64,000 nt of DNA from Candidatus Aeolococcus gillhamiae (GTDB taxonomy: Bacteria; Chloroflexota; Dormibacteria; Aeolococcales; Aeolococcaceae), in contig QHBU01000130.1 in the NCBI GenBank assembly GCA_003244045.1, positions 796 through 64,795 of the forward strand, written 5' to 3'. The translations under genes and the position numbers were made by a program. This document shows, piece by piece, positions 53,157-64,000 of this stretch. How positions within the stretch are numbered: the first letter of the stretch is position 1; every line of letters starts with the position of its first letter. The notes beneath the pieces were generated by a model. It searched no databases and was not told the DNA's origin. It was given only the letters and a program-made list of their open reading frames with translations.

Positions 53157-54545
53157 CTAAGCGCTGATCACCACCGGCGTGCCGATCGGCGTCCAGTCAT
53201 ACGCCCACGCCATCACCGGGGTGGGGGTGTGCACGCAGCCGTGGCTGGCGGCCTGCTGGTTGTATTCGCCGCCCGGGCCGTACGAGCTGGTCGATTCCCA
53301 CCAGGCGTCGTGAATGTAGTAGCCGCCGCTCGCGAACCCGAGGCCCCACTTGCACGGGGTGGGGTTGTAGTAGAAGGGCGAGCCCTTCGGCCACGGCGAG
53401 ACGAATGTGTAGTTGGTGGGCTTGCTCATCACCGAGAAATGGCCCGTCGGGGTGGGCAGCAAGGGCCGGCCGGTGGTCACCGGGGTGGCCTTGACAACGC
53501 AGCCGTCCTGGTAGAAGAGCATCTCCTGCAGCGAGAGCGAGATGGTGATCACCTTGCCGGCGCCGACGGAGTACCCGCATTGGTGGGCCGCGAGCTCGGT
53601 GGCGATCTGGTTCTGGAGCGAGCTCACCGACGCGGCGGCCGCGTTGAGCTGGTCGGCGGTGCGCGCCGCGCGGAATTGGACGCCGATCCCCGCTTGCTGT
53701 GCGCTGAGGGCTGCGGCGTTGGGCGTGTGCTCGGCAACCGCCTGGTCGGCGCTCCACAGCAGCGGCTGGATCTGGCCACCCACCTGGTTGTTGAGGTTGA
53801 CCAGCGACTGCAACGTGCTGAGAGCGGGGAGGAGCTGCTCACCGGTGTTGATGGCGGCGAGGTTGTCATTGGCGGCGATCTGGTTGCTCAGCTGGTCGGC
53901 GAGCGCGCCCACGTTGCCGGCGTCGAGGTTGGCGCCGGCCGCCACGGCGACCAGGTGCCGAGCGGTGGAGAGGACCTGCTGCGGCCCTCCCGCAGACTGC
54001 AGCGCCGCCGCCAGCTTGACGCGCTGGGCGGCGACGACGGCCGTCCGCTGCTGCGCGATGAAGCTCTGCCACGAACTCGCCAGGGCACTGATCGCGGCGG
54101 GACTCCTGGCTGCGCTGAGCTGCCTCGGCCACTGTCCCGCAGCCGCAGTGGCGTCGCCGGTCAGCCAGGAGGACTGCTGCGCGGCCAAGTCGTTCCACTG
54201 GGCGATCACCGCCTGGGCCCGGCTGCGCTGCGCGTCGAGCGCCGCGCTCCAGGCCGACTGGGTCTTGGTACGGAGCCGGTCGAGCAGGGCCGGGCCCTCG
54301 TTGCCGAACCACCCCGGCGACCACCACGCTGCGGTTGGCGCCTGGCTGCCCAGCTCGGCGCGGAGCGGCGCCAGGCTGGCGGCGGGCACGCCCGCGGCCT
54401 GGTCGCGGTCCCACTGGGCGCTGAGCTGGGCGGCGGCGTCAGTGAAACTCTTCTGGCGGTCGCCGGCGGCGTGCGCTGTGACTGCGCCGGCAGCGACGCC
54501 GCAGACGAGCAGCAGAAGAGGGGGGATCAGGTAGCGAGGGCGCAT
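53157..54545 (-). CDS. L,D-transpeptidase (YkuD) with long Ala/Gln-rich helical N-terminal domain
   Basis: ATG 54545 gives MRPRYLIPPLLLLVCGVAAGAVTAHA (signal). A ~330-aa A/Q/L-rich region follows, then a C-terminal YkuD domain with YYIHDAWW....SHGCVHTP. Confidence 0.8.
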   Translation of the reverse strand: MRPRYLIPPLLLLVCGVAAGAVTAHAAGDRQKSFTDAAAQLSAQWDRDQAAGVPAASLAPLRAELGSQAPTAAWWSPGWFGNEGPALLDRLRTKTQSAWSAALDAQRSRAQAVIAQWNDLAAQQSSWLTGDATAAAGQWPRQLSAARSPAAISALASSWQSFIAQQRTAVVAAQRVKLAAALQSAGGPQQVLSTARHLVAVAAGANLDAGNVGALADQLSNQIAANDNLAAINTGEQLLPALSTLQSLVNLNNQVGGQIQPLLWSADQAVAEHTPNAAALSAQQAGIGVQFRAARTADQLNAAAASVSSLQNQIATELAAHQCGYSVGAGKVITISLSLQEMLFYQDGCVVKATPVTTGRPLLPTPTGHFSVMSKPTNYTFVSPWPKGSPFYYNPTPCKWGLGFASGGYYIHDAWWESTSSYGPGGEYNQQAASHGCVHTPTPVMAWAYDWTPIGTPVVISA

Positions 54546-54660
54546 GGTGATGAGGATCGTGGGGCTGGGATGAGCCAACTGTAGCCGGTGAGCCCGGAAT
54601 CGAACTCGGCAATCGGGGAACCCGGGGTGGCCGGCGATGGTTACGGACCGCCTGGCGGGC

Positions 54661-55659
54661 TCAGCCCGGGGACTCCTCCCGGCGGTGCGTCGCGGCCAGC
54701 TCGGTGAGCATCCGCGGGTCGAGGTCGGCCCCGCTGATGGTGGCCACCTTGCAGGCGGTCACCGCGCGCACGGTGGCGGTGCGGCGGCCGCCTTCGATGA
54801 GCGCCCGCTCGCCGAGCACCGCTCCGGGTCCCAGCTGGCCGAGCGGCTTGCCACCGACCTCCACCGCCACCACTCCGTCGAGCACCAGGAAGACGTCGCT
54901 GCCCTCATCGCCCTGCTCGAGCAGCGTCCCGCCCTGGGCCACCTTGCTGATCCGCGGCTTGGTGCCGCCGCGCATGATGTGGCCAGATAGCTCACGCTCC
55001 AACGCCGTCTCGACCTCGCTCACCAGCGCCGGCGAGTCCTCGTCGCCCCACGGGGTGTGCGAACCGAAAGCGCGTTGGTACCAGTCCTTGAAGTCCACCA
55101 GGCCCGATTTCAGGACCAGCTTCCCGTCCCTGTCGTAGATCCAGTGGCGAGGGAACGGGCTGGCGCCGGTCACCTCGTGGACGGAGCTGCCGTCGGCGTA
55201 CAGGGTCAGCGACAGCGTGGTCCACACCAGCGGCGCCGATATCTGCACGAACGGTGGGTACTTGACGCGGCGCGGCGCGGGCACGCCGGTGCGACCACCG
55301 TAGGTCTGCACGAACTTCACCCAGCCCTCGGAGACGACCGGGGCGTGCTGCCGGTCGGGGAAGGCGACGGCAGCGAAGGTGGCGACCCGGCCGGCCAGAC
55401 GCATGGTGGTGGACCCGATGTGGCCGCCGCCGCTGTAGCCGTGCCCGGTGATCCGGCCGTCGTCGACCTCGATCCACGCGCTGAGGCGATTGGCGAAGCG
55501 GAACCGGTCGGCCTCGCGGAGTGCCTCGAGGTCGTCGACCTGGTCGGGCGGGGGCTCGTCGTAGTGGGCGACGCCCATGTCGAACGGCATCCGGGTCATG
55601 CCTCGAACGGCTTCCGAGGGGATCCACGAGATCGACGTGACGGACGACTCGATTTTCAT
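54661..55659 (-). CDS. cyclic-nucleotide-binding (CAP_ED) protein with uncharacterised ~220-aa N-terminal domain
   Basis: ATG 55659 is preceded by GGGAGG upstream. The C-terminus GGTLLEQGDEGSDVFLVLDGVVAVEV..LGPGAVLGERALIEGGRRTATVRA is a canonical cNMP-binding fold with the phosphate-binding cassette. The N-terminal domain (MKIESSVTSISWIPSEAV...) is not recognised. Confidence 0.8.
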   Translation of the reverse strand: MKIESSVTSISWIPSEAVRGMTRMPFDMGVAHYDEPPPDQVDDLEALREADRFRFANRLSAWIEVDDGRITGHGYSGGGHIGSTTMRLAGRVATFAAVAFPDRQHAPVVSEGWVKFVQTYGGRTGVPAPRRVKYPPFVQISAPLVWTTLSLTLYADGSSVHEVTGASPFPRHWIYDRDGKLVLKSGLVDFKDWYQRAFGSHTPWGDEDSPALVSEVETALERELSGHIMRGGTKPRISKVAQGGTLLEQGDEGSDVFLVLDGVVAVEVGGKPLGQLGPGAVLGERALIEGGRRTATVRAVTACKVATISGADLDPRMLTELAATHRREESPG

Positions 55660-55735: not shown

Positions 55736-55771
55736 GGTGCTCCCCACCGGCCAACCGTGGTGCTCACCCCA
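55736..55771. promoter_or_regulatory. direct repeat GGTGCTC(A)CCCCA x2 (23-nt register) in the divergent promoter between the cNMP-binding gene and the REC-HTH-cyclase gene
   Basis: ggtgctcccca lies at 55736-55746 and ggtgctcacccca at 55759-55771, 35 nt upstream of ATG 55806. They may be a binding site, but this is untested. Confidence 0.3.
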
Positions 55772-55805
55772 TTGCCGATTTTCCGGCCCCCCCTACAGTC
55801 GCCCC

Positions 55806-57128
55806 ATGGCCAGAGACGCATCCATACGGGTTGTGCTCGCCGACGACAACCTGATCGTCCGCGAGGGCGTGCGGGCGCTCCTCCTGATCGCCGGGGACAT
55901 CGAGGTCGTGGGCGTTGCCGGCGACTACGACGAGCTGGTGGCGGGCGCGGACGCGCTCACCCCGCAGGTGGTGGTCACCGACATCCGCATGCCGCCGAAC
56001 TTCACCGACGAGGGCATCAGGGCGGCCCGCCTGATCCGCAAGCAGTACCCGGGCACGGGCGTGGTCATCCTCTCCCAGTACGACGAGCCCGAATACGCCA
56101 TCTCGCTGCTCAGCGAGGGTGCCGCCGGCTACGCGTACCTGCTCAAGGACGGCGTCGCTGAGGGCGACCAGCTGGCCCGGGCGGTGCGTGAGGTCAGCGC
56201 GGGTGGCTCGATGCTCGACCCGCGCATCGTCAACGCGCTGACCAAGCCGGTGACCGACGGCGGCAGCCTCAGTGACAGCGACGAGCGGCTCCTCCAGATG
56301 GTCGCCGAGGGGCGGCCGATGAAGTCCATCGCGGTGGCCATCAACTCCACGGCCGAGGCCGTCTCCGACGCCGTTGAGCACCTCTTCCTGCAACTTGCAC
56401 AGCAGGCCAGCAGTGGGACGCAGAGCGCGTTGCAGCGGCTGCGGCTCCTGCACCGCGCCATCGTCGACCGCGAGGAGCAGGGCGAGAGCCTCAGCCGGAT
56501 GCTCCCCGGCGGGCTGGCCCAAAAGCTGCGCGAGCAGGGCGTCAAGCCGGGGGAAACGGAGCGCCTCACCGTCACCGTGCTGATGTCGGACATCCGCGCC
56601 TACTCGACAATCGCGGAGGTGGCCGACCCCAGCGTCCTTGCCGGCCAGCTGCACGAGCACCGCGCCGAGATGAACCACGCGCTCCTCGGTGAGAACGGCA
56701 CGGTCATGCAGTTCGTCGGCGACGCCGTGATGGCGGTGTTCGGCGCGCCGTTCCCGCAAGCGGACCAGTGCGAGCGAGCGGTGGCGGCAGCGGAGGCCAT
56801 GCACGCTCGGCAGGCCGAGCTCAACGCCCGCTGGGCTGCCGCCGGCCTGCCGCCGTTCCATCTCGGCATCGGCGTGTCCACCGGCGACGTCGCAGCCGCC
56901 CTGCTCGGGTCGGATGAGCGCCTCGAGTACTCGGTTGTCGGTGATGCGGTCAACCTCGCCCAACGGCTCCAGCAGTGGGCCGAGGGCGGTCAGACCGTGC
57001 TCAGCGATCCCACCTTTGCAGCGCTGTCGCCGCCGCCGCACGCCGAACGGCTGGAGCCCGCCCTTGTCAAGGGACGGCAGACGCCTGTCGGCGCGCACCG
57101 GCTGGGTACTGCCCTCGTCGCGACGTGA
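55806..57128 (+). CDS. response regulator fusion: REC + degenerate LuxR/GerE-type HTH + class III nucleotidyl cyclase domain
   Basis: ATG 55806 gives MARDASIRVVLADDNLIVREG.. The REC domain has VVVTDIRMP (Asp acceptor), VVILSQY and YLLKDG. The HTH region is LSDSDERLLQMVAEGRPMKSIAVAINSTAEAVSDAVEHLFLQL. The cyclase has VTVLMSDIRAYS, MQFVGDAVMAVFGAP, HLGIGVSTGDV and YSVVGDAVNLAQRLQ. Its TGA overlaps the first kinase GTG. Confidence 0.85.
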   Translation: MARDASIRVVLADDNLIVREGVRALLLIAGDIEVVGVAGDYDELVAGADALTPQVVVTDIRMPPNFTDEGIRAARLIRKQYPGTGVVILSQYDEPEYAISLLSEGAAGYAYLLKDGVAEGDQLARAVREVSAGGSMLDPRIVNALTKPVTDGGSLSDSDERLLQMVAEGRPMKSIAVAINSTAEAVSDAVEHLFLQLAQQASSGTQSALQRLRLLHRAIVDREEQGESLSRMLPGGLAQKLREQGVKPGETERLTVTVLMSDIRAYSTIAEVADPSVLAGQLHEHRAEMNHALLGENGTVMQFVGDAVMAVFGAPFPQADQCERAVAAAEAMHARQAELNARWAAAGLPPFHLGIGVSTGDVAAALLGSDERLEYSVVGDAVNLAQRLQQWAEGGQTVLSDPTFAALSPPPHAERLEPALVKGRQTPVGAHRLGTALVAT

Positions 57129-59266
57129 GCAGCAACGGTTCGCCGAGCCGGCGCGTTCTGCGCTTCGCTGCGGCGCTCAGCGTGCTGGCACCGTGCATCG
57201 CCCTTGCCCTTGCGGCCTCCCTGGGAGTGCTCATCTACGCGGACCGCAGCGTGCCCGAGAATGAGTGGATTCGCGGTGTCGGTGCCGCGGTTTTCGCCCT
57301 GCTGGTGGCGCCGATGGGCAGCCTTCTGCTGCGCCGCGTCCCGCGCAACCCACTCGGCTGGATCTTCAGCGCGGCCGCGGTCACCACCGGTCTCATCGAG
57401 CCACTGGCGTTCCTCGCCATCCACGGCACCTACGTCGAGCACGACCGCTCGTGGTGGACACTCCTCAGCGCCTGGCTGACCGAGCCTCTCGCGGTGGTGT
57501 CCGTCGGCCTTCTCGTCGGCGTGGTCCCGTTGCTCTTTCCCGACGGAGTGGTGGCCTCCGCCCGGTGGCGGCGCTACCGTAGATTCCTAACGGCCTTCGT
57601 ACCGCTGGCCGCGCTGGCTGTCGCGGTGCAGACGGGTGTCGGGCTCACCACAGTTCGCGTCAACAGCAGCGGCGGCCTTTCCTCGGACACGCAGAGCGCG
57701 TCGGTGGCGATCGCCTTCCTCGGCCTCCTGGCGTGCTCCGCCCTGTCAGCCGCCAACCTGGTCGGCCGCTACCGTCGCGCCGAAGGGATCCGCCGCCGCC
57801 AGCTCCGCAGCTTCGCCATCGCTGTGGTCGTGATCATCGCCTTCGGCTTCATCCCGCACCTCATCAGCAACATCGCCCTGGAGGACCCCACCGCGCTGGC
57901 CGTGGCCATCACCAACGCGGTGATGGTCGGGTCATTCTCACTCCTGCTCCTGGCCATGGGGATCGCCATCCTGAGGTACCGGCTGTTCGGTATTCAGGTG
58001 CTGGTCAGCCGCACGCTGGTCTACGGATCGCTGGCTGTTTTCATCACCGCCGTGTACGTCGGCATCGCCGTCGGCATCGGGGCGCTGGTCGGCGGCGGTG
58101 GCAAGCCCAACCTCGGGCTGTCGATCCTGGCCACCGCAATCGTCGCCATCGGGTTCCAGCCGGTGCGCGAGCGTGTCCAGAAGATTGCCAACCGGCTCGT
58201 GTACGGCAAACGGGCGACACCATACGAAGTGCTGTCGCAGTTCTCAGAGAGGGTGGCCGAGTCGTACTCCCTGGACGACGTGATGCCACGGATGGCGCGC
58301 GTCCTGGCCGAGGGGACGGGGGCGCAGCGCGCCGACGTCTGGCTGCGCAGCGGAAACATGTGGCACAACGCGGCTGTCTGGCCTGGCGATGCGACGGCGG
58401 CGAATCCGGTCGCTGCGGACGGATCGCTGCCCGCCATCAACGGAGCCAGCCGGCTGGTCGAGGTGCGCCACCAGGGTGATGTGCTGGGCGCTCTGGGCGT
58501 CACCAAACGCAGTGGCGAATCGCTGACGCCCGTGGAGGACAACCTGCTCTCGCATCTTGCCTCGCAGGCGGGATTGGTCCTGAAGAACGTCGGCCTCACC
58601 GGTGACCTGCAAGCGCGGCTTGTCGAGCTGCGCGCGTCGCGGCAGCGGCTGGTGACGGCACAGGACGAGGAGCGCCGCAAGCTGGAGCGCAACCTCCACG
58701 ACGGGGCACAGCAGCACCTTGTCGCCATCAAGGTGAAGCTCGGCCTTGCCGAGATGCTGATGCGCCGCGACCCGGAGACGGCCAAGCTCACCCTGGATCA
58801 ACTGAAGGGCGACGCCGACGAAGCGCTGGAAACCCTGCGCGATCTGGCGCGTGGCATCTACCCACCGCTCCTCGCCGAGAAGGGCTTGGGCGCTGCTCTC
58901 GCATCGCAGGCTCGGAAGGCGACCGTCCCGGTGACCGTCGAAGCCGACGGCATCGGCCGCTATTCGCAGGACGTCGAGGCCGCCGTGTACTTCTCAGCGC
59001 TGGAGGCGCTGCAGAACGTGCAGAAGTACGCGCAGGCGTCGGAGGCGACCGTGCGACTGCGTGAGGACGCTGGTGCGTTGCACTTCGAGGTCGCTGACGA
59101 CGGGAGAGGTTTCGATGTCGCCAGCACCACCAGGGGCTCGGGTCTCACCAACATGGCCGACCGCATCGACGCTCTTGGCGGCGAGCTAGGGATTGAGTCC
59201 GCGCCGGGCCATGGCACCAGGCTGCACGGCCGGCTGCAGGTGACCGCCGCGAGCGTACCCGCGTGA
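57125..59266 (+). CDS. sensor histidine kinase paralog 1 (multi-TM sensor + GAF + HisKA_3 + HATPase_c)
   Basis: GTG 57125 forms a GTGA overlap with the cyclase gene. The dimerisation/His region is DEERRKLERNLHDGAQQHLVAIKV. The ATPase region has ALQNVQKYA, DDGRGFD, GSGLTNMADR and GGELGIES.PGHGT. Confidence 0.9.
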   Translation: MSSNGSPSRRVLRFAAALSVLAPCIALALAASLGVLIYADRSVPENEWIRGVGAAVFALLVAPMGSLLLRRVPRNPLGWIFSAAAVTTGLIEPLAFLAIHGTYVEHDRSWWTLLSAWLTEPLAVVSVGLLVGVVPLLFPDGVVASARWRRYRRFLTAFVPLAALAVAVQTGVGLTTVRVNSSGGLSSDTQSASVAIAFLGLLACSALSAANLVGRYRRAEGIRRRQLRSFAIAVVVIIAFGFIPHLISNIALEDPTALAVAITNAVMVGSFSLLLLAMGIAILRYRLFGIQVLVSRTLVYGSLAVFITAVYVGIAVGIGALVGGGGKPNLGLSILATAIVAIGFQPVRERVQKIANRLVYGKRATPYEVLSQFSERVAESYSLDDVMPRMARVLAEGTGAQRADVWLRSGNMWHNAAVWPGDATAANPVAADGSLPAINGASRLVEVRHQGDVLGALGVTKRSGESLTPVEDNLLSHLASQAGLVLKNVGLTGDLQARLVELRASRQRLVTAQDEERRKLERNLHDGAQQHLVAIKVKLGLAEMLMRRDPETAKLTLDQLKGDADEALETLRDLARGIYPPLLAEKGLGAALASQARKATVPVTVEADGIGRYSQDVEAAVYFSALEALQNVQKYAQASEATVRLREDAGALHFEVADDGRGFDVASTTRGSGLTNMADRIDALGGELGIESAPGHGTRLHGRLQVTAASVPA

Positions 59267-61422
59267 CGGTCGCAGCGCAGCGGCGCGCGTGGACCACGCC
59301 TCTGGCCGTCGGCCTGGCCGCAATGGCAGTTGCGGCGGCAGCGACCACGGCCACGCTTGCCTTCCTCAACCGCGCGTCGTTCCCCAACCTGGATGCAGCC
59401 GACCCGACGTCGATCCTCATCCCGCTCGGAGTTGCAGTATTGGGCGCGCTGGTTGCCTCACGCCGTCCACACAACCCGACCGGCTGGCTCTTCTTGGTTC
59501 TCGCTGTGGTGGGGGGGCTGCAGGGGGTGGAGGATCAGTACGTCAGGTACGCGCTGGTGACTCACCCGGGTTCATTGCCCGGGGCAGCATGGGTGGCGTG
59601 GTTGAACAGCTGGTTCACCTTCCTCGTCTTCCCGTCCGGCGCCCTGGCCGCGGTCCTGCTGCTGCTCCCTGACGGACATCTCCCCTCGCGACGATGGCGG
59701 CCGGTCCTCGTTGCAGCGGCCGTCATGACCGCGGTGAACATCGTCTTCACTGCGCTCGCGCCCGGGCCGCTGACGCTCAGCTCGAGCGGGGCTAACTTCC
59801 CGACTCCGGACAACCCCGTTGGCCTAGCCGTTCTGAGCAGCGTCGACCAGACGTCTGGATCGGTTGTGGCCAATGGCGCCCTCTGGTTCGTCGCCCTGGC
59901 CGTCCTCCTCGTGGCGGCGGCCGCTCCGATGGTGCGGATGCGCAAATCGAAGGGCGACCAGCGACAGCAGTTGAAATGGATCGCCTACGCGGTGTTGGGC
60001 ACCGTTGTCGGAATCGTCGTCTTCACTGTCCTCGCCGGGCAGATCCTGCCATCCTGGACCTTCGACATCCCGCTGGTTCTCGGTTTCGGCGTGGCACTGC
60101 CGGCGGCGGCCGGTGTCGCCATCTTCAAACACCGGCTCTACGACATCGACATCGTCATCAGTCGCACACTCGTGTACGGCGCACTGGCTGTGTTCATCAC
60201 CGCCGTGTATGTCGGCATCGCAGTCGGCATTGGTGCGCTCATCGGCGGCGGCGGCAAGCCGAACCTGGCTCTGTCCATCCTCGCCACGGCGGTCGTGGCA
60301 GTTGGCTTCCAGCCGGTTCGCGAACGCGTGCAGAAGGTTGCCAACCGCCTCGTGTACGGAAAGCGCGCCACCCCATACGAGGTGTTGGCCCAGTTCTCCG
60401 AGCGCGTCGCCGGCTCGTACGCCGCCGCCGACGTACTGCCGCGGATGGCCCGTGTTCTTGCCGAGGGGACGGGCGCGCAGCGTGCGGATGTGTGGTTGTG
60501 CAGCGGCGACGCTTGGGCCGATGCCGCAGTCTGGCCCGGTGACGCCACGCCCTGCGCTCCATGGACTGCGCCCAACGGTGACCTGCCGTCGTCCAGTCCG
60601 GGTGACAGGGTTGTCCCTGTTTCACACCAGGGCACTGTGCTCGGAGCTCTTGGCGTCACCAAGCGCTTCGGTGAATCGCTGACCCCGGTCGAGGAGAACC
60701 TGTTGAGTCACCTCGCCGGCCAGGCAGGGCTGGTGCTCAAGAACGTCGGCCTCACCGGCGATCTTCAGGCGCGCCTGGTGGAGCTCCGCGCGTCGCGGCA
60801 GAGGCTGGTGAGCGCGCAGGACGAGGAGCGCCGCAAGCTCGAGCGCAACCTCCACGACGGAGCCCAGCAGCACCTCGTGGCCATCAAGGTGAAGCTCGGC
60901 CTGGCCGAGATGCTCGCGAGCAGAGACCCCGAGAAGGCGCGGGCCACCATCGAGCAGCTCAAGGGCGACGCCGATGAAGCCCTGGAAACCTTGCGCGACC
61001 TGGCGCGCGGCATCTATCCACCGCTCCTGGCCGAGAAGGGCTTGGGCGCAGCCCTCGCGTCGCAGGCTCGGAAGGCGACCGTCCCGGTGACGGTCGAAGC
61101 CGACGGCATCGGCCGCTATTCGCAGGACGTCGAAGCCGCCGTGTACTTCTCGGTGCTCGAAGCGCTGCAGAACGTGCAGAAGTACGCGCAGGCGTCCCAT
61201 GCCGCGGTCACTCTGGGTGAGCACGACGGTGCGCTGACGTTCGATGTCGTCGACGACGGCAGTGGCTTCGACGTTGGGTCCACCACCAAGGGTTCCGGCC
61301 TGACCAACATGGCCGACCGCATCGACGCTCTCGGCGGCGATCTGGAGATTGAGTCCACGCCGGGCAGTGGGACGCGCCTCCATGGCCTGCTCCGGGTGGC
61401 GTCAGTGGCAGCACTGGCGTGA
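59263..61422 (+). CDS. sensor histidine kinase paralog 2 (multi-TM sensor + GAF + HisKA_3 + HATPase_c)
   Basis: GTG 59263 overlaps the upstream TGA (GTGA). The C-terminal ~430 aa are near-identical to paralogs 1 and 3, while the N-terminal membrane domain has diverged. Confidence 0.9.
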   Translation: MTVAAQRRAWTTPLAVGLAAMAVAAAATTATLAFLNRASFPNLDAADPTSILIPLGVAVLGALVASRRPHNPTGWLFLVLAVVGGLQGVEDQYVRYALVTHPGSLPGAAWVAWLNSWFTFLVFPSGALAAVLLLLPDGHLPSRRWRPVLVAAAVMTAVNIVFTALAPGPLTLSSSGANFPTPDNPVGLAVLSSVDQTSGSVVANGALWFVALAVLLVAAAAPMVRMRKSKGDQRQQLKWIAYAVLGTVVGIVVFTVLAGQILPSWTFDIPLVLGFGVALPAAAGVAIFKHRLYDIDIVISRTLVYGALAVFITAVYVGIAVGIGALIGGGGKPNLALSILATAVVAVGFQPVRERVQKVANRLVYGKRATPYEVLAQFSERVAGSYAAADVLPRMARVLAEGTGAQRADVWLCSGDAWADAAVWPGDATPCAPWTAPNGDLPSSSPGDRVVPVSHQGTVLGALGVTKRFGESLTPVEENLLSHLAGQAGLVLKNVGLTGDLQARLVELRASRQRLVSAQDEERRKLERNLHDGAQQHLVAIKVKLGLAEMLASRDPEKARATIEQLKGDADEALETLRDLARGIYPPLLAEKGLGAALASQARKATVPVTVEADGIGRYSQDVEAAVYFSVLEALQNVQKYAQASHAAVTLGEHDGALTFDVVDDGSGFDVGSTTKGSGLTNMADRIDALGGDLEIESTPGSGTRLHGLLRVASVAALA

Positions 61423-63566
61423 CTCAACAAGAGCGACATCCTCGCTGGACGACGCCGCTCGCGCTGGCCTTGGCGGCGCTCGCCCTGGCGGCCGCGGCCG
61501 CAACTGTCGCGCTGGCCATCGCCAACCGTGCCACGCTGCCGAACCTCGACGCGGCGGACCCCATCTCCATCGTCGTGCCGATCGGTGTCTCCGTCGTCGG
61601 GGCGCTCATCGCCTCTCGGCACCCGCGCAACCCCACAGGCTGGCTGTTCCTCTTCGCCGCCGCCGTCGGCGGCTTGCAGGGGGTGGAGGACCAGTACGCC
61701 CGGTTTGCGCTGGTCACACACGGTGGCGGTCTGCCCTGGGGCGCATTCTCTCTATGGCTGAACAGCTGGTCGTTGTCCCTCATCTATCCGTGTGGCGCGG
61801 TGGCCATGTTCTTCCTCCTGCTGCCCGACGGTCACCTGCCCTCGAGGCGGTGGCGCGCAGTGGTCGCCTTGGCGGTTGTCGTGTCCACCGCGGCTGTCCT
61901 GCTCACCGCACTGGCGCCCGGCCCGCTCGTTCCGAGCACCAACGGTCTGAACTACCAGACGCCGGTCAATCCCGTGGGGTTGGCGGGTTTCAGCGGTGCT
62001 GTTGTGGGGGCCCTGAACAGTGCGCTGTACATCGCCGGGCTCGTCCTGCTGTTGGCGTCGGCGTCGGCGCCGCTGGTGCGTTCGCGGCGGTCGCATGGCG
62101 AGCTCCGCCAGCAACTGAAGTGGATCGCGTATGCGGTCATCATCACCGTGGTCGTCAATCTCACGCTGGCCATCTTCTTCAACCAGCTGCCAGGCTGGGT
62201 GTACGACCTTCCTATCGTGGTCGGCTTCGGCGTCGCCATGCCCGTGGCAGCTGCGATCGCGATCTTCAAGTACCGCCTCTACGATATCGACGTCGTCATC
62301 AGCCGCACGATCGTCTACGGCTCGCTGGCGGTGTTCATCACCGCGGTGTACGTTGGCATCGCGGTCGGCATCGGGGCGCTGGTCGGCAGCGGCGGCAAGC
62401 CCAACCTGGGCCTGTCCATCCTCGCCACCGCCATTGTGGCCGTTGGGTTCCAACCGGTGCGCGAGCGCGTGCAGCGGATTGCCAACCGCCTCGTGTACGG
62501 CAAGCGTGCGACGCCATACGAGGTGCTTGCCCAGTTCTCCGAGCGCGTCGCTGAGTCCTACGCAGCGGACGACGTCATGCCGCGGATGGCGCGGGTGCTC
62601 GCCGAGGGAACCGGCGCGCAGCGCGCCGATGTTTGGCTGCGCGGTGGAACACAGTGGCGCAACGCGGCCGTGTGGCCGTCGGACGCCTCACCGGAGCGTC
62701 CGCTCGCCGTCGAGAACGACATGCTGCCAGCGCTTGGCTCAGCGATGCGGGTGGTCGAGGTTCGCTACCAGGGAGACCTGCTCGGAGCGCTGGGTGTCAC
62801 CAAGCGCAGCGGCGAGTCGCTGACCCCGGTGGAGGAGAACCTCCTGTCCCACCTCGCGGGACAGGCCGGCCTGGTGCTCAAGAACGTCGGGCTGACCTCG
62901 GACTTGCAGGCGCGGCTCGAAGAGCTACGAGCCTCGCGTCAGAGGCTGGTCACTGCCCAGGACGAGGAGCGCCGCCGGTTGGAGCGCAACCTCCACGACG
63001 GTGCCCAGCAGCACCTGGTGGCGCTGAAGGTGAAGCTCGGCCTTGCCGAGTTGCTGATGAGCCGTGACCCAGCGAAGGCCAGAGCCACCATCGAGCAGCT
63101 CAAGGGCGACGCTGACGAGGCGCTCGAGACCCTGCGCGACCTGGCTCGCGGCATTTATCCGCCGCTTCTCGCCGAAAAGGGTTTGGGTGCGGCGCTCGGG
63201 TCGCAGGCGCGCAAGGCCACGATCCCGGTGACGATCGATGCTGAGGGCGTCGGCCGTTACTCACAGGACATCGAGGCCGCCGTGTACTTCTCCGTGCTCG
63301 AGGCGCTGCAGAACGTGCAGAAGTACGCGCAGGCCTCGAAGGCGACTGTCCTGCTTCGCGAAGCCGACGGCGTGCTGCGATTCGAGGTCGCCGACGACGG
63401 CCAGGGGTTCGACGTCCTCACCAGGGCGAAGGGATCAGGCCTCACCAACGTGGCTGACCGCGTCGACGCTCTTGGTGGTGCGATCGACGTGCACTCCGTG
63501 CTCGGACGGGGAACGACGCTCGCTGGAACCCTGTCCGTGCCGGTTCGTGTCGCGGTGCCCGCGTGA
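61419..63566 (+). CDS. sensor histidine kinase paralog 3 (multi-TM sensor + GAF + HisKA_3 + HATPase_c)
   Basis: GTG 61419 overlaps the upstream TGA. The domain order and motifs are the same (DEERRRLERNLHDGAQQHLVALKV; DDGQGFD; GSGLTNVADR). Confidence 0.9.
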   Translation: MTQQERHPRWTTPLALALAALALAAAAATVALAIANRATLPNLDAADPISIVVPIGVSVVGALIASRHPRNPTGWLFLFAAAVGGLQGVEDQYARFALVTHGGGLPWGAFSLWLNSWSLSLIYPCGAVAMFFLLLPDGHLPSRRWRAVVALAVVVSTAAVLLTALAPGPLVPSTNGLNYQTPVNPVGLAGFSGAVVGALNSALYIAGLVLLLASASAPLVRSRRSHGELRQQLKWIAYAVIITVVVNLTLAIFFNQLPGWVYDLPIVVGFGVAMPVAAAIAIFKYRLYDIDVVISRTIVYGSLAVFITAVYVGIAVGIGALVGSGGKPNLGLSILATAIVAVGFQPVRERVQRIANRLVYGKRATPYEVLAQFSERVAESYAADDVMPRMARVLAEGTGAQRADVWLRGGTQWRNAAVWPSDASPERPLAVENDMLPALGSAMRVVEVRYQGDLLGALGVTKRSGESLTPVEENLLSHLAGQAGLVLKNVGLTSDLQARLEELRASRQRLVTAQDEERRRLERNLHDGAQQHLVALKVKLGLAELLMSRDPAKARATIEQLKGDADEALETLRDLARGIYPPLLAEKGLGAALGSQARKATIPVTIDAEGVGRYSQDIEAAVYFSVLEALQNVQKYAQASKATVLLREADGVLRFEVADDGQGFDVLTRAKGSGLTNVADRVDALGGAIDVHSVLGRGTTLAGTLSVPVRVAVPA

Positions 63567-64000
63567 TGGGCGATATCCGCCGTCCCTCGACGACTCTCCT
63601 CGGGGTGGCGTGCGCCGCGCTCGCGGTGGCGATGGCGATGGCAGCGGCAGCATTGGTAGCCGCCAACGGACTCAATGCGACGACGGTGTCCGACGTGCCG
63701 CTCATCGTGGTATCGGCGAGCTACGCGCTGCTCGGAGCGCTGGTGGCCTCTCGGCAGCCAAGAAACATCACGGGATGGTTGTTCCTCTTCGTCGCGGTGT
63801 TCACAGGGATGGGCGGTGTCGCCAGTGAGTACGCGCTGTACGCCCGGGCGGCACGGCACGGCGCTCTTCCCGGTGCGGTGTGGGCCATCTGGTTCACATC
63901 GTGGTCGCAGTACGTGTTGTTCCCGACCGGTGCCATCGCCCTGCTCATGCTCTACCTGCCCGACGGGCGCGTTCCCTCGCCGAGGTGGCGGCCGCTAGCG
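63566..64000 (+). CDS. sensor histidine kinase paralog 4, N-terminal fragment (runs off window end; absent from ORF track)
   Basis: ATG 63566 overlaps the upstream TGA by 1 nt (TGATG). My translation is MGDIRRPSTTLLGVACAALAVAMAMAAAALVAANGLNATTVSDVPLIVVSASYALLGALVASRQPRNITGWLFLFVAVFTGMGGVASEYALYARAARHGALPGAVWAIWFTSWSQYVLFPTGAIALLMLYLPDGRVPSPRWRP. It is collinear with the N-termini of paralogs 2 and 3 (..SR.PRNPTGWLFL......LLLLPDGHLPSRRWR). Confidence 0.8.
   Translation, partial: MGDIRRPSTTLLGVACAALAVAMAMAAAALVAANGLNATTVSDVPLIVVSASYALLGALVASRQPRNITGWLFLFVAVFTGMGGVASEYALYARAARHGALPGAVWAIWFTSWSQYVLFPTGAIALLMLYLPDGRVPSPRWRPLA

Follow-up and report, generated by a model that had tools for sequence, protein, structure and literature searches.

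A receiver-linked class IIIb-like cyclase with an invariant glutamine at the purine-selecting position and a conserved cyclic nucleotide-binding partner

A 64,000-nucleotide stretch of the genome of Candidatus Aeolococcus gillhamiae (assembly GCA_003244045.1, contig QHBU01000130.1, positions 796 to 64,795; hereafter the window, with a G+C content of ~70%) encodes a 440-aa protein composed of a receiver domain (REC), a degenerate LuxR-type helix-turn-helix (HTH) domain, a helical linker, and a nucleotidyl cyclase domain of class III (window positions 55806-57128, forward strand). The cyclase belongs to a large clade, spread over two bacterial phyla, in which the residue expected to select the purine base is invariably glutamine (Q302), and its gene adjoins that of a protein with a domain for binding cyclic nucleoside monophosphates (cNMPs). 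We consider it probable, from the conserved residues and the gene neighbourhood, that the protein works as a purine cyclase under the control of phosphorylation and that a dedicated receptor reads its output; its messenger (cyclic AMP, cAMP; cyclic GMP, cGMP; or both) is not readable from the sequence.

The Pfam profile PF00211 matches the cyclase domain at 60 bits (E = 3e-16; cut-off 21.9), as it does 42 of 42 family members. When the cyclase half was compared by phmmer with all PDB chain sequences, the top matches were Cya2 of Synechocystis (2W01, 2e-29), a phytochrome-Cya2 fusion (6FHT), CyaB of P. aeruginosa (3R5G, 4e-25), and CyaC of Spirulina (1WC0, 1e-21), with the class IIIa enzyme Rv1625c far weaker at about 1e-9 to 1e-11. 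Foldseek, run with an AlphaFold2 (AF2) monomer model that served domain-level fold matching only, returned TM-scores of 0.76-0.82 to CyaC, Cya2, and CyaB, and by sequence and fold alike these three enzymes and the 6FHT fusion outrank both the mammalian enzymes and Rv1625c. The sequence-only reading that preceded this work had aligned the domain by eye against Rv1625c, a class IIIa enzyme with a Lys/Asp pair, but the domain is class IIIb-like and this yardstick did not suit it.

Around both specificity positions the phmmer alignments are ungapped and carry top posterior marks. At the first site, GTVMQFVGDAV lies over GTIDEFMGDGI (Cya2), GTIDKFVGDCV (CyaB), and GTVDKFVGDAI (CyaC), so that Q302 falls on the lysine of CyaB and CyaC (IDKFVGD, VDKFVGD) and on Glu488 of Cya2 (IDEFMGD); it is neither the lysine of the textbook adenylyl cyclase rule (K-x-x-G-D) nor the glutamate that the guanylyl cyclase rule places at the purine-selecting position. 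At the second site, where RLEYSVVGDAVNLAQR lies over RTKYGVVGAQVNLTYR, RMDYTIIGREVNLASR, and RSDFTAIGPSVNIAAR, S376 falls on the threonine of CyaB and CyaC (DYTIIG, DFTAIG) and the glycine of Cya2 (KYGVVG), where class IIIa has aspartate, and S376 shows the class IIIb state, in which threonine or serine replaces the substrate-binding aspartate of class IIIa. The motifs quoted in the sequence-only reading (LMSD, MQFVGD, EYSVVGD, and VNLAQR) are all present in the DNA, and no profile alignment puts Lys/Asp or Glu/Cys at the specificity positions. Of the two positions it had called anomalous, the lysine equivalent is indeed an unusual glutamine, but S376 is in the ordinary class IIIb state, since serine and threonine swap freely in the clade and threonine is normal in class IIIb adenylyl cyclases; the change from lysine to glutamine is the sole real departure from the rule.

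The claim that the catalytic residues are intact was borne out as well. D262, D306, the phosphate-binding R372, N383, and R387 match the corresponding residues of Cya2, CyaB, and CyaC and are invariant in the family alignments, and a phosphate-binding lysine is present as well; over two phyla, these residues and the K422-G-R motif are invariant or nearly so. Because a homodimeric class III cyclase must supply all of its catalytic residues from one polypeptide, retention of the set argues for a working enzyme, and a catalytically competent cyclase is the best reading of this conservation.

The glutamine had been presented as a trait of one gene; it is instead invariant across a large two-phylum clade. 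Among 7527 homologues, the best 120 (70-91% identity, 437-442 aa) together with the query have Q302 without exception (121/121), with serine in 113 and threonine in 8 at position 376. A HMMER search over 1.84 billion cluster representatives yielded fragments and more distant relatives, and on the query's side of the tree M/I-Q stands at the site in every one of the 43 sequences whose cyclase domain is complete, including ~600-aa proteins with a polytopic membrane N-terminus instead of the receiver. When a single genome of each prokaryotic species was scanned with two peptide patterns that leave out the glutamine motif, at least 595 stretches were confirmed as encoding relatives of the query. 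In the best 80 of these stretches, to which all counts over 80 loci refer, glutamine is present in 80 and the receiver in 78, across Dormibacterota and Actinomycetota (Acidimicrobiales, Microthrixaceae, Ilumatobacteraceae, Streptosporangiaceae, Nitriliruptorales, and others); position 376 is serine in 31 and threonine in 49, with several codons used. As both glutamine codons are in use at position 302 (CAG 74, CAA 12), this residue is held by purifying selection, beyond shared descent alone.

All glutamine sequences fall into one clade of the maximum-likelihood tree (support 100/99), subtended by a long stem (1.05 changes per site). The nearest outgroups, P0130 and P0131, are REC-HTH-cyclase proteins with canonical D-K...T residues, and Cya2 groups with Lys/Thr enzymes outside the clade, which arose once from Lys-type ancestors of the same architecture. 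Changes fixed on the stem comprise F260M, L281Q, L/F286R, D301M, K302Q, V363A, G365A, and I/F367L; F260M, D301M, K302Q, V363A, G365A, and I/F367L cluster at or beside the base pocket, and M260, two residues before D262, is a clade-specific change from phenylalanine. In the cytidylate cyclase EaPycC, F100 and R142, positioned relative to D102 and D146, are two of the three base-determining residues reported (PMC11224242); by their offsets from the metal-binding aspartates, M260 and Q302 would be the equivalents of F100 and R142. This correspondence suggests concerted remodelling of the base pocket.

Several relatives extend this picture. P0130 (L023:6001-7296) and P0131 (L024:1813-3120), the nearest Lys-type relatives at 45-46% identity, are encoded among genes for MacB/FtsX-type ATP-binding cassette (ABC) transporters; at the former locus a HisKA_3 kinase is encoded too, along with a REC-GerE regulator. 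P0164 (L025:1148-2965) is a Gln-type cyclase of ~600 aa with an N-terminus resembling a seven-transmembrane domain, and P0121 (561 aa) has a second receiver after the cyclase domain, giving the order REC-HTH-cyclase-REC. A distant cyclase of the same phylum (L016:124-2454, forward strand) carries methionine at the purine-selecting position (GTVTMFIGD) and threonine at the second, and so departs from the Lys/Glu rule as well.

The N-terminal part of the protein is a complete NarL-family response regulator, occupying residues 1-~200. The acidic pocket of the receiver (D13/D14), the phospho-acceptor D59, S90, and K114 are all invariant in the family alignment; the NCBIfam models NarL, UvrY, RcsB, and ErdR align over residues 3-209, and in the Foldseek search residues 1-~220 match the full-length structures of VraR, LiaR, RcsB, DesR, and NarL over about 215 columns. 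The HTH segment reaches only 12.3 bits against Pfam GerE (E = 0.14; cut-off 23.5), and GerE attains E<=0.01 in only 12 of 42 family members, in line with the earlier remark that the recognition-helix signature is missing. Its scaffold is nevertheless invariant in 73 sequences from the two phyla (L155, L162, L163, A167, G169, A176, F194, G204, L209, and L212, with I175 in 72 of 73). NarL reportedly contacts DNA bases through K188, V189, and K192, whose equivalents we take, by hand alignment to NarL, to be S187, D188, and E191. In the same 73 sequences, these columns hold D/A/S, A/D/E, and Glu (67/73), and in place of the basic residues of the NarL type the recognition helix has acidic or neutral ones. 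The domain is a conserved fold with an acidic DNA-reading face, not a decaying remnant, and it may now serve as a dimeric stalk. The final helix of the domain continues into the linker (residues ~204-250), which ends ...SRMLPGGLAQKL; the AF2 model places linker helices at 206-223 and 236-243 with low confidence, and L209, R211, and L212 vary little or not at all. The linker may be likened to the cyclase transducer element reported in enzymes of classes IIIa and IIIb (PMC5995499).

The divergently encoded partner protein joins an all-beta N-domain to a C-terminal cNMP-binding domain whose phosphate-binding cassette (PBC) reads GERALIEGGRRTAT. A partner gene with the same N-domain adjoins the cyclase gene in 6 of the first 8 loci and in 57 of the 80 loci across both phyla, the genes around the pair differ from locus to locus, and no cNMP-binding neighbour was present at the two Lys-type loci examined (P0130 in L023 and P0131 in L024). 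Because the pair is kept while its surroundings vary, and because the Lys-type relatives have no such neighbour, the cyclase and the cNMP-binding protein constitute a conserved two-gene module; the partner is probably the receptor of the cyclase product. Sequence searches of Pfam, NCBIfam, and the PDB gave no match to its N-domain, and Foldseek with the AF2 model of the partner returned cNMP-binding-domain matches only. The N-domain is predicted to be all-beta and is very strongly conserved (for example, SWIPSEA, HYD, RFRFAN, GGRTGVPAPRR, PFPRHWIYD, and TPWGDEDSP), and from its invariant polar residues it could be an enzyme. Reading the product from the receptor was attempted and given up, as the cassette (GERAL...RRTAT) matches the PKG, PKA, and HCN domains in the PDB about equally and the C-helix is too short to align with T127/S128 of CRP, E146 of XC_0249, or N143 of PycTIR.

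A paralogue of the partner, P0362 (contig C61:7964-8999, forward strand), has the same two domains and is 74% identical. Its gene lies directly after a 741-aa open reading frame whose C-terminal residues resemble those of the window's histidine kinases, with no cyclase gene nearby, and this locus hints that the receptor family is functionally linked to kinases. The Gln clade is also paired with a receptor of another kind, a Crp-family regulator (cNMP_binding and HTH_Crp_2 domains; L025:3066-3746) encoded convergently to P0164; it was dropped as a clue to the product owing to an ambiguous alignment of its C-helix to E. coli CRP. In the window, the cNMP-binding gene is adjoined by a YkuD-type L,D-transpeptidase gene (53157-54578, reverse strand; Pfam E = 4e-22), whose product has a long extension rich in Ala and Gln at its N-terminus; the gene is not conserved at the other loci examined.

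Downstream of the cyclase gene, and in one operon with it through successive GTGA start/stop overlaps, lie three histidine kinase genes and a fourth open frame of kinase length (Table 1). The three kinases are tandem paralogues of about 715-765 aa, and domain searches confirmed HisKA_3 in each; NarL-type receivers are usually served by kinases of the HisKA_3 type. A canonical REC-GerE regulator is encoded beyond the window's end, and the kinase series may feed two regulators, one transcriptional and one enzymatic.

A mechanism can be proposed from these elements. The four translationally coupled HisKA_3 kinases, the fourth of them putative, would phosphorylate D59, and phosphorylation would bring about dimerisation, as in other NarL-type regulators. 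The former DNA-binding domain, its DNA binding presumably lost, and the helical linker would form a dimeric stalk that joins the two cyclase domains as a head-to-tail dimer with two active sites, and the resulting cyclic nucleotide would be read by the divergently encoded cNMP-binding protein. The amide of Q302, being both a hydrogen-bond donor and an acceptor, could pair with adenine (N1/N6) or guanine (O6/N1).

As for the product, a single exchange in Cya2 (E488K) switches the enzyme from GTP to ATP use (PMC5995499). Since the Cya2 position aligned with Q302 alone sets GTP versus ATP, the caution voiced in the sequence-only reading, namely that cAMP should not be assumed, was well placed. 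cAMP is tentatively, and slightly, favoured as the main product because the clade is nested among Lys/Thr enzymes of the adenylyl cyclase type in the tree, and because a mycobacterial enzyme of class III whose substrate pair is Gln-Asn is described in a preprint (bioRxiv 10.1101/2024.03.06.583649, which cites Castro et al. 2005) as an adenylyl cyclase with guanylyl side activity. cGMP, or a dual output of cAMP and cGMP, appears possible at a somewhat lower level of confidence, and another nucleotide, or no activity, is less likely still. The genome of the window encodes a separate cyclase with transmembrane and HAMP segments (TM-HAMP) and K...T residues, and seven larger genomes each hold exactly one M-Q cyclase together with 1-12 others, mostly of the Lys type. 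A genome with the Gln-type enzyme as its sole cyclase was not found among the eight examined, all of which hold a Lys-type cyclase too; such a genome, had it also encoded cAMP receptors, would have singled out cAMP as the product.

Certain points weigh against an active, kinase-gated purine cyclase with cAMP as its favoured product. The product of the clade is deduced from sequence; phosphotransfer from the kinases to the cyclase receiver is suggested by gene order and residues, and the loss of DNA binding by residues. The AF2 monomer has a mean predicted local distance difference test (pLDDT) score of 69, falling below 50 at residues 302-305 and 363-378, and no pocket geometry was drawn from it. 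Moreover, the remodelled pocket, the presence of one Gln-type enzyme beside Lys-type cyclases, and the private receptor fit a messenger other than cAMP at least as well. In a bolder scenario, which we regard as doubtful, the Gln-Ser/Thr cyclases would make cGMP or another cNMP as a private messenger only when the membrane kinases fire, and the all-beta N-domain of the dedicated receptor would be a new cNMP-controlled output, possibly acting back on the histidine kinases.

The most serious rival is a dedicated guanylyl cyclase, in which Q302 reads the O6/N1 edge of guanine and a cGMP channel is insulated from the cAMP of the Lys-type cyclases; we hold it to be unlikely. Glutamine is isosteric with the glutamate of guanylyl cyclases, and the best solved sequence match (2e-29) is Cya2, on whose Glu488 Q302 falls and in which this site by itself decides between GTP and ATP (PMC5995499). 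The second position tolerates Ser, Thr, Gly, Ala, and Cys in guanylyl cyclases (PMC4215837); the pocket was remodelled on the stem branch of the clade; a Lys/Thr cyclase is separately encoded in the same genome, and one Gln-type enzyme stands beside Lys-type ones in each of the seven others; and the linked cNMP receptor recalls the cGMP pair XC_0250/XC_0249 of Xanthomonas (PMC3770947). Glutamine, however, is without the carboxylate that pairs with N1-H and N2-H of guanine. The tree places the clade among Lys/Thr enzymes and apart from Cya2, and the RTA cassette of the receptor, a type that occurs in cAMP and cGMP binders both, matches PKA, PKG, and HCN alike. The mycobacterial Gln-Asn cyclase is, to our knowledge, the only Gln-type class III enzyme to have been assayed. 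In the preprint already mentioned, its activity is mainly adenylyl and to a minor extent guanylyl (bioRxiv 10.1101/2024.03.06.583649).

Two further rivals depart more strongly from a working purine cyclase. A pyrimidine cyclase making cCMP or cUMP, akin to PycC of Pycsar, with the cNMP-binding neighbour as a defence effector, is the least credible explanation: the cyclase domain draws matches from PADLOC models for PycC (65.8 bits at best, E = 9e-19) and the partner's cNMP-binding domain from those for PycTIR, and the strongly conserved, unclassified N-domain could be an effector, but the matches are no stronger than the generic Pfam match (60 bits) and reflect shared domains only, for which reason Pycsar membership was rejected as the main reading. 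The partner, moreover, has no TIR or transmembrane domain, consisting only of PF00027 and a soluble all-beta domain. The residues that narrow the PycC pocket (Y50/D94/R97 in the Bc enzyme, F100/R142/Q144 in the Ea enzyme; PMC11224242) map by their offset from the metal-binding aspartates to M260, Q302, V304, and G305; the glycine of the GD motif is kept, and this mapping finds no arginine beside GD and no pocket-narrowing Arg, Tyr, or Phe. Neither PADLOC nor the mapping of pocket residues lends specific support to a PycC-like pyrimidine specificity, and two-component control, occurrence once per genome, and vertical conservation (65-90% identity across lineages) are unlike patchy defence islands. 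Almost as improbable is a pseudo-enzyme, the cyclase domain of which would be non-catalytic, sensing nucleotides or purely dimerising, and would signal by protein-protein contacts. The canonical base-selecting lysine is lost, and the apparent loss of DNA binding sets a precedent for decay in the same protein; nevertheless, D262, D306, R372, N383, R387, and K422 are invariant or nearly so in two phyla, Q302 itself is under purifying selection, and the gene of a cNMP receptor is co-conserved with that of the cyclase.

Known systems offer likenesses to parts of this protein and its locus. Cya2 (Synechocystis PCC 6803, 2W01), a class IIIb guanylyl cyclase, shares the metal, phosphate, and transition-state residues and the fold (TM about 0.77-0.80) but has Glu/Gly where the query has Gln/Ser, and it is regulated through CHASE2 and the membrane, whereas the query is regulated through a receiver. 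CyaC (Spirulina/Anabaena, 1WC0) and CyaB (P. aeruginosa, 3R5G) are class IIIb enzymes of the same fold with Thr/Ser at the second position; they differ in having the canonical lysine, other regulatory domains, and no NarL-type REC-HTH unit upstream, although cyanobacterial CyaC is likewise controlled via receiver domains. Rv0386 of M. tuberculosis also has glutamine in place of the purine-selecting lysine and is fused to a LuxR-type HTH, and it reportedly has adenylyl cyclase activity and a guanylyl side activity for which the Gln-Asn pair is needed (bioRxiv 10.1101/2024.03.06.583649); its second residue is nevertheless Asn rather than Ser/Thr, and in place of the order REC-HTH-cyclase it has no receiver and a cyclase followed by an ATPase and then the HTH. 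The glutamine common to both may be convergent. NarL/FixJ regulators (NarL, VraR, LiaR, RcsB, and DesR) align full-length with residues 1-~200, share the intact phospho-acceptor set, and usually have as partners HisKA_3 kinases, which here are co-transcribed with the cyclase; the query departs from them in an HTH below the GerE threshold, in Ser/Asp/Glu at the base-contact sites, and in its enzymatic output. Lastly, in Xanthomonas campestris the class III cyclase gene XC_0250 adjoins the gene of a cNMP-binding reader, XC_0249, and the textbook specificity residues are missing there too (PMC3770947); the Xanthomonas cyclase, however, has tetratricopeptide (TPR) repeats, no receiver, and altered transition-state residues, and the output of its reader is a GGDEF effector rather than an all-beta domain.

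Every part of the system is of a known kind, be it the cyclase of class IIIb, the receiver of the NarL type, the HisKA_3 kinases, or the domain that binds cNMPs, and glutamine at the lysine position has one biochemical precedent, the Gln-Asn cyclase as that preprint describes it. The literature searched yielded no large clade of class IIIb in which a Gln-Ser/Thr pair is invariant, no REC-HTH-cyclase fusion in which such a cyclase follows a complete NarL-type regulator whose HTH is disarmed, and no fixed pairing of such a cyclase with a receptor carrying an unclassified N-domain. Prediction of a class III cyclase's product from two residues is routine in annotation, and homologues are currently labelled "adenylate/guanylate cyclase" or "adenylate cyclase"; the present clade fits neither rule despite its strict conservation, and its members come from lineages abundant in soil (Dormibacterota, Acidimicrobiia, and further Actinomycetota). 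The fusion retains a NarL-type DNA-binding domain as a structural part while its DNA-reading residues are lost. The product of the clade would also bear on whether a glutamine amide can act as a switchable purine reader in cyclases, a role for which the invariant glutamine of phosphodiesterases offers an analogy. Bacterial cGMP signalling is known from very few systems (PMC3770947), to which, if cGMP proved to be the product, a widespread one would be added.

Table 1. Features of the response-regulator cyclase locus, in window numbering.
Feature	Position	Strand	Basis or remark
Partner gene, 332 aa: ~215-aa all-beta N-domain and C-terminal cNMP-binding domain	54661..55659	-	Pfam PF00027, E 4e-15
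Response-regulator cyclase gene	55806..57128	+	ORF; Pfam domains; homologues
Receiver (REC), residues 9-109	55830..56132	+	Pfam PF00072 Response_reg, E 3e-14
Degenerate LuxR/GerE-type HTH, residues ~153-200	56262..56405	+	Sub-cut-off GerE; Foldseek; column counts
Helical linker, cyclase-transducer-like, residues ~204-250, ...LQRLRLLHRAIVDREEQGESLSRMLPGGLAQKL...	56415..56555	+	AF2 helices
Class III cyclase catalytic domain, residues 255-425	56568..57080	+	Pfam PF00211 Guanylate_cyc
D262 (gac), first metal-binding Asp, LMSDI	56589..56591	+	DNA, alignment
Q302 (CAG), purine-selecting position, MQFVGD	56709..56711	+	Alignment, invariance
D306 (gac), second metal-binding Asp, VGDAV	56721..56723	+	DNA, alignment
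S376 (tcg), second substrate position, EYSVVGD	56931..56933	+	Alignment
N383...R387, transition-state Asn and Arg, VNLAQR	56952..56966 (codons 56952-56954, 56964-56966)	+	Both invariant
Histidine kinase 1 (HisKA_3, HATPase_c)	57125..59266	+	Pfam; GTG start overlaps cyclase stop (GTGA at 57125)
Histidine kinase 2 (GAF-like, HisKA_3, HATPase_c)	59263..61422	+	GTGA overlap with kinase 1
Histidine kinase 3 (HisKA_3, HATPase_c)	61419..63566	+	GTGA overlap with kinase 2
Fourth open frame, kinase length, putative kinase	63563..64000, on to 65779	+	GTGA overlap with kinase 3; contig C130 ORFs
Canonical REC-GerE regulator	66168-66854, beyond window end		45% identical to the query's first 207 residues

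The interval 56480-57128, on which the sequence-only reading had centred, corresponds to the C-terminal half of the gene and takes in the cyclase core with its N-terminal helical linker. In the open reading frame 55737-57128 (forward strand), the ATG at 55806 is the likely start, since the 440 aa that it yields fit the 437-442 aa of the homologues; the N-terminus of the protein then reads MARDASIRVVLADD.

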